From assembly GCF_003334255.1 (NCBI RefSeq), contig NZ_QOWU01000016.1: a DNA stretch of 64,000 nt. One strand, written 5' to 3'. Numbering within the stretch: position 1 is the first letter of the stretch; every line of letters starts with the position of its first letter. The position numbers and the translations under genes were made by a program. The stretch comes from Escherichia coli. Lineage in GTDB: Bacteria > Pseudomonadota > Gammaproteobacteria > Enterobacterales > Enterobacteriaceae. Under the pieces are notes generated by a model. That model saw only the letters and a program-made list of their open reading frames with translations, was not told the DNA's origin and searched no databases. This document shows positions 420-53,470 of the stretch, piece by piece.

Positions 420-530
420 GCAGAAAAACGACTTTTTATAATATAAACATTTAACATGATAATATTAAAAACAGACTTTATTATCGTAATAAAAATCGCC
501 CAAACATTGCTGTTCGGGCGATCAAATTAA

Positions 531-1928
531 TTATTGTTTATCCTGCATATACGGCGTGTACACCCCGTTCAGACTGTGCAGGAAAGCTACGATATCATCC
601 ACATCCTCCTGCGGCAGCTCTTTGCCTACCTGATAGCGCAGCATCAGTTTCACCGCCCCGTCCAGCGTCGGCACGTCACCGCGATGGAAGTACGGTGCCG
701 TTAAAGCAACGTTACGTAAACCGGGTACTTTCTGACGCAATTTATCACGCTCTTCTTTAGTCACATTCATACGACCAATATCCGCCGCCGTAATTTCCCC
801 AAAGTTAAAGTCTTTTTTCAGCCCCAACGGTTCAAAGGAACGTCCGCCGAGAATAATACCACCATGACAAGTTGCACATTTATTATCTTTAAATAATTGA
901 TAGCCTTTTTTCTGTTGCGCTGTCAGCGCATTTTCATCTCCGCGCAACCATTTATCAAATGGGGAATCCGGCGTAATTAATGTTTTCTCAAATTCAGCAA
1001 TGGCATCAGTAATATTTTCGCCACTGAAACCTTGCGGATAGACTTCGAGGAACTGCGTTTTAAGCTGCGGATCTTTTTCCAGCTTAGCAATAATTTCGTC
1101 CCAGGATTTCGACGCCATTTCAATCGGGTTCAACGGCGGTCCACCAGCCTGATCCTGCAATGTTGCCGCACGACCATCCCAGAACTGCTCAACGTTAAAT
1201 ACTGAGTTAAATACCGTCGGCGCGTTAATCGGCCCAACTGCGCCACCAACACCAATCGATGTTTTTCTGCCATCGACGCCCCCCGCATTCAACGCATGGC
1301 AATGAGCGCATGAAATGGTGCTATCAGCCGATAAACGGGGATCGTGATACAGCGCAAAACCCAACGCCACTTTTTGCGCATCGGTAGGCAGTTTTTGCGG
1401 GATGGGCTGCACCGGTTCATTGCGATGTTCCGGAGCAGTATCATTGCTGGCGTAATATTCCGCGCGCTGTTTTGCAATCCAGGCCAGTATTTCCGCCCGC
1501 TCTTCATCACTCACCTTACCCGCCCAGTGTAGCGCGGTATAACGCGTTGGTGGCATAGTTTCATACTGCATCACCCATTCAATCTTATTCAAATCGCTTT
1601 GCGAAACGGGTTTATCAGCCAGCAGTGCCGCACGCACGGCCTCAAGGTTAAAAGATTTATATCCAAGCTTAATGTCGTAATCCATCAACTGTTTCGCGCC
1701 AGGAATATAATAATAGGCGGGTAATTCTGCCGAAGGCGTGTGGCAATAGTCGCATCCTTTTTCGCGGAGAAAGCCTAAAACCTTATTATTTTCACTGACA
1801 GCAGATGCCTGAACATCGGCCTGTTTACTGCGTTTATTATCGTGGTACCACACATAACCAGATAACCCTAAATAGCAAATCGCGACGCCAGCCAGGCCGA
1901 TCGCGGTAATACGTGAGACCATTTTCAT
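531..1928 (-). CDS. yhjA: cytochrome c peroxidase family protein (465 aa), three CXXCH haem motifs
   Basis: 465-aa ORF with ATG start; N-terminal membrane anchor; CDYCH, CAHCH and CATCH motifs; matches YhjA/Ccp. Confidence 0.9.
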   Translation of the reverse strand: MKMVSRITAIGLAGVAICYLGLSGYVWYHDNKRSKQADVQASAVSENNKVLGFLREKGCDYCHTPSAELPAYYYIPGAKQLMDYDIKLGYKSFNLEAVRAALLADKPVSQSDLNKIEWVMQYETMPPTRYTALHWAGKVSDEERAEILAWIAKQRAEYYASNDTAPEHRNEPVQPIPQKLPTDAQKVALGFALYHDPRLSADSTISCAHCHALNAGGVDGRKTSIGVGGAVGPINAPTVFNSVFNVEQFWDGRAATLQDQAGGPPLNPIEMASKSWDEIIAKLEKDPQLKTQFLEVYPQGFSGENITDAIAEFEKTLITPDSPFDKWLRGDENALTAQQKKGYQLFKDNKCATCHGGIILGGRSFEPLGLKKDFNFGEITAADIGRMNVTKEERDKLRQKVPGLRNVALTAPYFHRGDVPTLDGAVKLMLRYQVGKELPQEDVDDIVAFLHSLNGVYTPYMQDKQ

Positions 1929-2301
1929 TATTCTTCCCTCACGGTGGTGAGTTATTGTGACCCAGAAAATTTTCCAGAATGCTGCAAACGTCTCTGCGAG
2001 ACAAAGCCATCATAAAAAACAGGGAGATACGCTTTTTGATAGGAATCAATCAATTACATGAATATAAACTATCAATAAGATAGCCTGTGCCTATTACCCA
2101 GATCAGGAATGGCATATCATGATTGCGGCGAGAGCAGGATTGAATGTTCTGAAAATGAAAAACAACACCAAATCGGTATTTTTATAAATTCCATTGATAT
2201 TAGTGCGTTATATTTTTTGACAGGTTAATAAACGTGATCCACCGCACGCTTTGTCGCCCACCAGGCGGAGCGAATGACTACCCTTAAAGAAAAGCCGATA
2301 A

Positions 2302-38628: not shown

Positions 38629-38800
38629 TGCCGGATGGCGCTGCACGCAGAGGCACAGCGCCACCGGGTATACAGATTGTTGACAAAGTGCGCTTTGTTT
38701 ATGCCGGATGCGGCGTTAACGCCTTATCCGGCCTACAAAATCGTGCAAATTCAATACATTGCAGAATTTTCGTAGGCCTGATAAGCGGAGCGCATCAGGC
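38629..38800. repeat. REP/BIME palindromic repeat cluster (dppB-dppA intergenic)
   Basis: Three REP-like units, e.g. atgccggatgcggcgttaacgccttatccggcctac and gtaggcctgataagcggagcgcatcaggc. Confidence 0.8.
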
Positions 38801-41011: not shown

Positions 41012-41097
41012 GTAGGTCGAATAAGGCGGTCGCGCCGCATCCGACAATGGCCGGCACATTTGCCTGATGCGACGCTGACGCGTCTTATCAGGCCTAC
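41012..41097. repeat. REP/BIME palindromic repeat pair
   Basis: gtaggtcgaataaggcggtcgcgccgcatccgac and tgcctgatgcgacgctgacgcgtcttatcaggcctac. Confidence 0.75.
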
Positions 41098-41182: not shown

Positions 41183-41320
41183 GAATTTGGTCGGTGATAG
41201 AGGATTACTCGCCACTTCGTGGCTCGCCCTGCGGGCCGTTGCTGGCGCAACGTTCTCTCGCTTCGCTCGAGTCGAACCTCCCTGCCCCCGGAGGTTCTCA
41301 TCCTCATGAGCTGCAGATGC

Positions 41321-41350
41321 AAAAAAGCCTGCTCGTTGAGCAGGCTTTTC
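41321..41350 (-). terminator. proK rho-independent terminator
   Basis: Same hairpin immediately 3' of the tRNA on the minus strand, followed by a T-run. Confidence 0.7.
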
Positions 41351-41355
41351 GAATT

Positions 41356-41432
<77 letters not shown>

Positions 41433-52589: not shown

Positions 52590-52788
52590 TTGTTGCATCA
52601 CCCGCCAATGCGTGGCTTAATGCACATCAACGGTTTGACGTACAGACCATTAAAGCAGTGTAGTAAGGCAAGTCCCTTCAAGAGTTATCGTTGATACCCC
52701 TCGTAGTGCACATTCCTTTAACGCTTCAAAATCTGTAAAGCACGCCATATCGCCGAAAGGCACACTTAATTATTAAAGGTAATACACT
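52590..52788 (+). promoter_or_regulatory. cspA promoter (AT-rich UP element, -35 ttgcat) and 159-nt 5' UTR with cold box
   Basis: Leader acggtttgacgtacagaccattaaagc starts about 159 nt upstream of ATG; cold box tgacgtacaga at 52636-52646. Confidence 0.75.
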
Positions 52789-53001
52789 ATGTCCGGTAAA
52801 ATGACTGGTATCGTAAAATGGTTCAACGCTGACAAAGGCTTCGGCTTCATCACTCCTGACGATGGCTCTAAAGATGTGTTCGTACACTTCTCTGCTATCC
52901 AGAACGATGGTTACAAATCTCTGGACGAAGGTCAGAAAGTGTCCTTCACCATCGAAAGCGGCGCTAAAGGCCCGGCAGCTGGTAACGTAACCAGCCTGTA
53001 A
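52789..53001 (+). CDS. cspA: major cold shock protein CspA (70 aa)
   Basis: [70 protein letters not shown]; RNP1/RNP2 motifs. Confidence 0.97.
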
Positions 53002-53028
53002 TCTCTGCTTAAAAGCACAGAATCTAAG

Positions 53029-53057
53029 ATCCCTGCCATTTGGCGGGGATTTTTTTA
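53029..53057 (+). terminator. cspA rho-independent terminator
   Basis: atccctgcc-attt-ggcggggat hairpin followed by a T7 run. Confidence 0.75.
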
Positions 53058-53187: not shown

Positions 53188-53340
53188 TTACTCTTTCAAT
53201 TTGCAGGCTAAAAACGCCGCCAGCTCATAACTCTCCTGTTTAATATGCAATTCACACAGTGAATCTCTTATCATCCAGGTGAAAAATAAAAGCGTGAAAC
53301 AAATCACTATTAAAGAAAGTAATCTATATTTCTGCGGCAT
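53188..53340 (-). CDS. hokA: Hok-family type I toxin HokA (50 aa)
   Basis: MPQKYRLLSLIVICFTLLFFTWMIRDSLCELHIKQESYELAAFLACKLKE from ATG 53340-53338. Confidence 0.85.
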   Translation of the reverse strand: MPQKYRLLSLIVICFTLLFFTWMIRDSLCELHIKQESYELAAFLACKLKE

Positions 53341-53442
53341 TCCCAGCCTCCTGTGTTGATTTCCAACGAGTGATTTATAGTCAGGTGGGGCTTTTCTCTG
53401 TCTGCCTTTCGGTGAATACCTGAGACAAACAGTCTCAAGCAC
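53188..53442 (-). CDS. mokA: mok-like overlapping reading frame (84 codons) in frame with hokA
   Basis: ORF starting MLETVCLRYSPKGRQRKAPPDYKSLVGNQHRRLG and ending at the hokA stop; functional status not determinable from sequence. Confidence 0.4.
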   Translation of the reverse strand: MLETVCLRYSPKGRQRKAPPDYKSLVGNQHRRLGMPQKYRLLSLIVICFTLLFFTWMIRDSLCELHIKQESYELAAFLACKLKE

Positions 53443-53470
53443 CCGTGGCTATTCTAGCTTAATAAGTTTG
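53400..53470 (+). ncRNA. sokA: expected Sok-type antisense RNA (sokA) opposite the mokA translation initiation region; boundaries not resolved
   Basis: Inferred from hok/sok locus architecture only; no unambiguous promoter or terminator identified by eye. Confidence 0.3.

Follow-up and report, generated by a model that had tools for sequence, protein, structure and literature searches.

Known di-haem and tri-haem peroxidases

Classical bacterial cytochrome c peroxidases (Ccps), such as those of P. aeruginosa (PDB 1eb7), N. europaea (1iqc), N. gonorrhoeae (6qkn) and P. pantotrophus (2c1u), contain an electron-transfer (E) and a peroxidatic (P) haem domain in common with E. coli YhjA, as well as an inter-haem Trp, the catalytic Gln and Glu residues and a Ca2+ site; these four enzymes match aa ~170-456 of YhjA at E about 1e-71 to 1e-76. 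They differ from YhjA in having no counterpart of its ~170-residue N-terminal anchor and haem domain, and in taking electrons from soluble cytochromes or cupredoxins, not from quinol. A further difference concerns the P haem pocket, where classical Ccps have a distal His that ligates the oxidised P haem and must move away on reductive activation, a step that most of them need, whereas YhjA has Val227 at this site.

The quinol peroxidase (QPO) of Aggregatibacter actinomycetemcomitans and PerC of Zymomonas mobilis are described in the literature as enzymes of the same tri-haem, N-terminally anchored, quinol-dependent kind as YhjA. These are orthologues in other species that were compared by their literature description, and QPO was found experimentally to be membrane-bound, whereas the anchor of YhjA is a predicted one. 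The di-haem enzymes MauG, MbnH and BthA also belong to the CCP_MauG fold family of YhjA, but their similarity to it is much weaker (E about 1e-24 to 1e-31), and they differ from it in chemistry and gene context.

The presence of three haems in YhjA, its quinol peroxidase activity, the ligation of its N-terminal (NT) haem and its control by FNR and OxyR are all published already. The physiology of Ccp, the activity of YhjA and the regulation of yhjA were reportedly treated by Khademian and Imlay in 2017, by Nobrega in 2018 and by Partridge in 2007, respectively. Published haem assignments place His63 and Met125 at the NT haem, His211 at the P haem and His355 at the E haem, with potentials of +133 mV for the NT haem, +210 mV for the E haem and -170 mV for the P haem; the P haem is described as having OH-/His coordination and as needing no reductive activation. 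The biochemistry of YhjA was performed with an anchor-less construct and the artificial donors hydroquinone and ABTS. Later papers report that the quinol peroxidase activity of YhjA is positive, whereas the discussion section of a 2016 paper (PMC4899803) states, citing Yamada 2007, that this activity had tested negative; the conflict presumably reflects expression or assay conditions.

The ccp locus and the architecture of its product

The ccp (yhjA) coding sequence occupies positions 531..1928 on the minus strand of the window, by which we mean the whole 64-kb stretch of DNA that was analysed, and the list of open reading frames and re-translation both give a product of 465 amino acids followed by a stop codon. 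The gene begins with an ATG that is preceded, 6 nt upstream, by the Shine-Dalgarno sequence GAGGGA; the codon, motif and domain coordinates given below refer to the same strand. RefSeq labels this sequence 'ccp: cytochrome c peroxidase' at 100% DNA identity, and a DNA search with positions 400-2400 of the window produced matches in 5423 of 5426 complete E. coli genomes, at least 80% of the query being covered in 5413 of them. Over aa 46-462, which is the whole of Ccp without its anchor, the product has 100% identity to the structure deposited as 9qdt in the PDB ('Probable cytochrome c peroxidase'); a literature search found no paper describing this structure. When compared to the E. coli K-12 YhjA/Ccp protein (9qdt; Oliveira 2023, PMC10301912), no difference was detected, and the product of 531..1928 is E. 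coli Ccp (YhjA) itself rather than merely a similar enzyme. For a genome scan, this amounts to a correct call on a well-characterised gene.

A sequence-only reading of this DNA had claimed that YhjA carries three CXXCH haem-binding motifs, and re-translation of 531..1928 yields exactly three. The first, CDYCH (aa 59-63, 1740-1754), is the extra attachment site for the NT haem, with His63 as proximal ligand; the second, CAHCH (aa 207-211, 1296-1310), belongs to the P haem at the catalytic site, with His211 as proximal ligand; and the third, CATCH (aa 351-355, 864-878), belongs to the E haem, with His355 in the same role. Pfam divides the protein in a corresponding manner, into an N-terminal haem-binding domain (Haem_bd, PF14376; aa 19-152, 1473..1874; i-Evalue 1.9e-29), the P haem domain of the classical Ccp core (CCP_MauG, PF03150; aa 185-332, 933..1376; i-Evalue 2.7e-53) and an E haem domain (Cytochrom_C, PF00034; aa 340-453, 570..911; i-Evalue 3.3e-05) that aligns along its length with solved Ccps. 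Similarity to the classical di-haem Ccps of solved structure is confined to aa ~170-456 (E about 1e-64 to 1e-76); this coverage, together with the Pfam assignments, indicates that the protein is composed of a classical Ccp core plus an extra N-terminal anchor and haem domain. The same analysis bears out the view that CAHCH and CATCH are typical of di-haem Ccps and that CDYCH is additional, in that CAHCH and CATCH lie in the region matched by classical Ccps and CDYCH in Haem_bd.

Considered as a whole, these and the following observations are very probably best explained by an anchored, tri-haem quinol:hydrogen-peroxide oxidoreductase in which electrons move from the NT to the E to the P haem, and whose synthesis is under FNR and OxyR control. 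The motifs, domains, conservation, absent distal His and promoter sites on which this explanation draws come from the present analysis, and the haem potentials, quinol activity and regulation phenotype come from the literature.

Proposed electron pathway, regulation and physiological role

In the proposed mechanism, an uncleaved helix comprising aa ~7-29 would hold Ccp in the inner membrane with the remainder of the protein in the periplasm, where the Ccm system would attach its three c-type haems. Electrons supplied by the quinol pool would enter at the NT haem ligated by His63 and Met125, move to the His/Met-ligated E haem (CATCH) and then cross Trp250 to reach the P haem (CAHCH), at which H2O2 would be converted to water with the assistance of Gln260 and Glu270; a Ca2+ site made up of N235, T410 and P412 would be situated between the E and P haems. 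A published M125A variant has a high-spin NT haem with a lowered potential and reduced activity, and this lower activity shows that the NT haem is on the electron pathway. By this route H2O2 would act as a respiratory electron acceptor via Ccp, and the literature contains a proposal that E. coli can respire with H2O2 by means of Ccp.

Curated information on the regulation of yhjA lists FNR as an anaerobic activator and OxyR as an activator. When sites for these proteins were sought between positions 1929 and 2331, as the sequence-only reading had suggested, predicted sites for both were found, in line with the curated activation. The putative FNR site (TTGATAGGAATCAA, 2036-2049) is an exact TTGAT-N4-ATCAA box and the sole exact match in the window, while the putative OxyR site, located at 2058-2094 by a sequence scan and thereby upstream of the FNR box with respect to ccp, is a tetrad of the type ATAG-N7-CTAT-N7-ATAG-N7-CTAT that agrees at 14 of 16 bases; this tetrad is the window's only match at two or fewer mismatches, and 100 shuffles contained 0 matches. 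A candidate -10 hexamer of the ccp promoter, TATGAT, was read by eye at 2009..2014 on the minus strand, and the centre of the FNR box would be ~40.5 bp upstream of the start site that this hexamer implies, which is the usual class II position. The ccp promoter was missed by a generic sigma-70 scan, as is expected of an activator-dependent promoter that has no -35 element. Transcription of ccp would need both FNR, at low oxygen, and OxyR, in the presence of peroxide, and from this dual need it follows that Ccp would be produced in anoxic or micro-oxic cells once they meet peroxide, a pattern in keeping with the published proposal of respiration with H2O2.

An inverted repeat (CTCACGGTGGTGAG, 1938-1951) just upstream of the ccp Shine-Dalgarno sequence was flagged as terminator-like on the plus strand. 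This hairpin was rejected as a meaningful structure of the 5' UTR, since a fold of 1900-2003 on the minus strand gave a z-score of -0.03.

The regulatory and biochemical data also bear on what the tri-haem enzyme is for. One can argue that its main role is periplasmic peroxide detoxification, not respiration with H2O2 as terminal acceptor: OxyR activates ccp as it does katG and ahpCF, the literature places Ccp in the front line of periplasmic defence, and Z. mobilis becomes sensitive to peroxide when perC is knocked out. We consider this unlikely, however, given that the kinetics of YhjA led investigators to call it ineffective in defence and to propose a respiratory role, and that the FNR requirement confines Ccp to low-oxygen conditions, in which the reoxidation of quinol becomes limiting. 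Detoxification and respiration are not mutually exclusive, and sequence alone cannot separate them.

The N-terminal segment and its predicted attachment to the membrane

To compare the N-terminal region with that of distant relatives, aa 1-175 alone were used as the query against 1.84 billion representative proteins, and 377 proteins in this representative library were found at E<=1e-3. An earlier search with the NT domain against a word-indexed database, which is superseded by the one reported here, had returned mostly fragments of enterobacterial orthologues and gave little information on distant conservation. Twenty full-length distant relatives (449-492 aa) among the matches listed, plus E. 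coli Ccp, form the comparison set of 21 sequences; the 20 relatives are 27-45% identical to Ccp in the N-terminal domain and 39-48% identical overall.

The N-terminus is strongly hydrophobic in 19 of the 20 distant relatives. In E. coli Ccp, aa 7-29 (1842..1910) form a run of 23 residues without a charge, which is longer than the core of a typical signal peptide, and the best 19-residue Kyte-Doolittle mean of the N-terminal segment is 1.72; the run is predicted to be an uncleaved signal-anchor or transmembrane helix. The CDYCH motif starts 30 residues beyond it, in agreement with the earlier suggestion that this motif follows a membrane anchor, the anchor itself being a prediction. A published analysis similarly predicts a transmembrane helix (aa 7-30) and reports that SignalP detected no signal peptide that could be cleaved. 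From these predictions, and by analogy with the membrane-bound QPO of Aggregatibacter, we infer a membrane topology in vivo in which native E. coli Ccp would be anchored.

It is far less probable that the N-terminus is a cleaved signal peptide, which would release a soluble periplasmic tri-haem enzyme that is served by a soluble donor instead of quinol. A scan did identify small-residue (-3,-1) sites after residues 41, 43 and 45, the enzyme made without its anchor has activity in vitro, and three of the relatives (P0176, P0103 and P0066) have N-termini that resemble a signal peptide or bear a lipobox. Yet these candidate sites are placed 12-16 residues past the end of the 23-residue uncharged run, and both the published SignalP result and the confirmed membrane location of the Aggregatibacter enzyme also speak against cleavage. 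CDYCH is downstream of every (-3,-1) site in the scan, so the mature protein would retain the motif despite any such cleavage; neither of the two circumstances that could have removed this N-terminal motif, its location in a cleaved signal peptide or its loss on re-translation, was found on inspection.

Attachment as a lipoprotein, in the manner of N. gonorrhoeae Ccp, which we take to be a lipoprotein, was also considered and rejected, as a scan of the E. coli Ccp N-terminus found no lipobox. Among the tri-haem relatives, lipobox-like motifs are present in P0103 (VTSC, aa 23-26) and P0066 (VASC, aa 9-12), and P0176 has a short N-terminal segment that resembles a signal peptide; membrane attachment may therefore vary within the tri-haem family. 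Eight of the 20 distant relatives (P0094, P0101, P0122, P0124, P0127, P0135, P0143 and P0150) have a P-L/V-x-N-L motif immediately C-terminal to the hydrophobic stretch with which the protein begins, and this motif is absent from E. coli Ccp.

The possible site of quinol oxidation

Residues Y19, Y25 and D30 of the helix have been proposed to function in quinol binding, and W118 in electron transfer from the NT to the E haem (Oliveira 2023, PMC10301912). In the tri-haem comparison set, Y19 (1872-1874), Y25 (1854-1856) and D30 (1839-1841) are each kept in 2 of 21 sequences, and W118 (1575-1577) in 3 of 21, and about half of the relatives have no Tyr or Asp anywhere in the helix. Two residues in the globular part of the NT domain, H134 and W135, are found in 20 and 19 of the 21 sequences, respectively. 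Published work also shows that YhjA without its anchor still oxidises hydroquinone, and in two relatives the helix is seemingly swapped for a lipoprotein signal. The exact quinol site is an inference, and we tentatively entertain, at somewhat short of even confidence, the idea that the transmembrane helix is a tether only and that quinol is oxidised on the side of the N-terminal haem domain that faces the membrane. This idea should be regarded as a lead only, since the helix is poorly conserved and its alignment cannot be relied on.

Conservation of the haem sites across tri-haem relatives

Each of the 20 distant full-length relatives contains exactly three CXXCH motifs, separated by 134-150 and 142-147 residues, and each has a tri-haem architecture like that described for QPO and PerC. 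The haem residues that are invariant in all 21 sequences comprise those of the three motifs (C59, C62 and H63; C207, C210 and H211; C351, C354 and H355) together with M125 (codon 1554..1556), the distal axial ligand of the NT haem, and M429, a candidate distal ligand of the E haem. The other invariant positions considered are W250, Q260, E270, N235, T410 and P412, and the roles that the literature gives to the invariant residues include haem ligation, the inter-haem electron path, O-O bond cleavage and the Ca2+ site. The NT domain also occurs outside full-length enzymes, as CXXCH is present in 65 of 67 short standalone matches, which suggests that this domain is a modular haem-binding unit. 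Three orthologue entries, P0047 (Salmonella enterica), P0036 and P0049, diverge before the first CXXCH, so that the motif is missing, after which their alignment with Ccp resumes; these look like frameshifted genes or miscalled fragments.

Alignment with classical Ccps places Val227 (codon 1248..1250) at the site of their distal His, that is, opposite His75 of the N. gonorrhoeae enzyme and the His of the GH pair in 'SVGHGW' of P. aeruginosa and 'SIGHKW' of N. europaea; where these enzymes read GH, YhjA reads GV. This column contains Val in 9, Ile in 12 and His in 0 of the 21 tri-haem sequences. The replacement of the distal His by Val227 implies an open P haem in the oxidised form of the enzyme and no need for reductive activation, which agrees with the OH-/His coordination and the lack of such a need published for YhjA.

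The domains, the conservation, the absent distal His and the published biochemistry uphold the proposal of the sequence-only reading that YhjA is a tri-haem enzyme of the quinol peroxidase type and not a soluble di-haem Ccp. That it might nevertheless be an ordinary soluble di-haem Ccp, in which the extra CXXCH arose by chance or is non-functional, is hardly credible. Such a view could appeal to the end-to-end alignment of the core (aa ~170-456) with solved di-haem Ccps and to the RefSeq name, which is simply 'cytochrome c peroxidase', but CDYCH is inside a recognised haem-binding domain (the Haem_bd match, E 1.9e-29), it is invariant along with Met125 in 21 of 21 divergent sequences, and the M125A substitution alters both spectra and activity. 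Chance is also a poor source of such motifs: among 200,000 shuffles of the protein, one motif occurred in 414, two in 1 and three in 0. Six of the seven cysteines of Ccp are inside CXXCH motifs. For the tri-haem family, the survey adds a modest check on published work, in showing that the haem sites, Met125 and the missing distal His are family-wide and that the helix residues proposed for quinol binding are not.

That Ccp acts like MauG or MbnH, modifying a protein substrate instead of reducing peroxide, can be dismissed with near certainty, for although Ccp belongs to the CCP_MauG superfamily as they do and the best NCBIfam matches of Ccp are the MbnH and MauG models, its scores are far below the curated cut-offs (145.7 against 443.85 bits for TIGR03791 and 160 against 362.85 bits for TIGR04039, on which grounds membership was rejected), true Ccps match at E about 1e-75 but MauG structures only at about 1e-24, Gln260 and Glu270, the catalytic residues of peroxidases, are invariant, and the adjacent genes are gadA and treF, with no mau or mbn genes among them.

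Flanking sequences and other features of the window

The genes gadA and treF neighbour ccp, one on either side. Directly 3' of the ccp stop codon, between ccp and the downstream gadA, the minus strand carries an intrinsic-terminator-like hairpin (494..523) with a 13-pair stem that includes 6 G-C pairs and is followed by the T-run TTTTATT. Further along, upstream of the gadA start, the sequence TTAGGATTTTGTTATTTAAA (400-419 of the window, minus strand) has what we take to be a resemblance to the GAD box, the element recognised by GadE.

A few E. coli strains have an IS1 element in or beside ccp. One such case is strain EC23HZZ201 (NZ_CP168035.1, locus 632-2806), in which IS1 splits the gene; its upstream piece is annotated separately as a 'heme-binding domain-containing protein', and the core is annotated as an N-terminally truncated pseudogene. 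These disrupted copies look like natural knock-outs of ccp.

Elsewhere in the window, Rfam matches at gathering threshold are located at 32876-32941, 38737-38779, 41015-41094, 41188-41321, 41359-41432, 52629-53056 and 53338-53444. The features they represent are ordinary for E. coli and include the rdlD antitoxin RNA, the ES036 sRNA, naRNA4, an RtT element beside a tRNA, the cspA thermoregulator and a sok-like antitoxin RNA.
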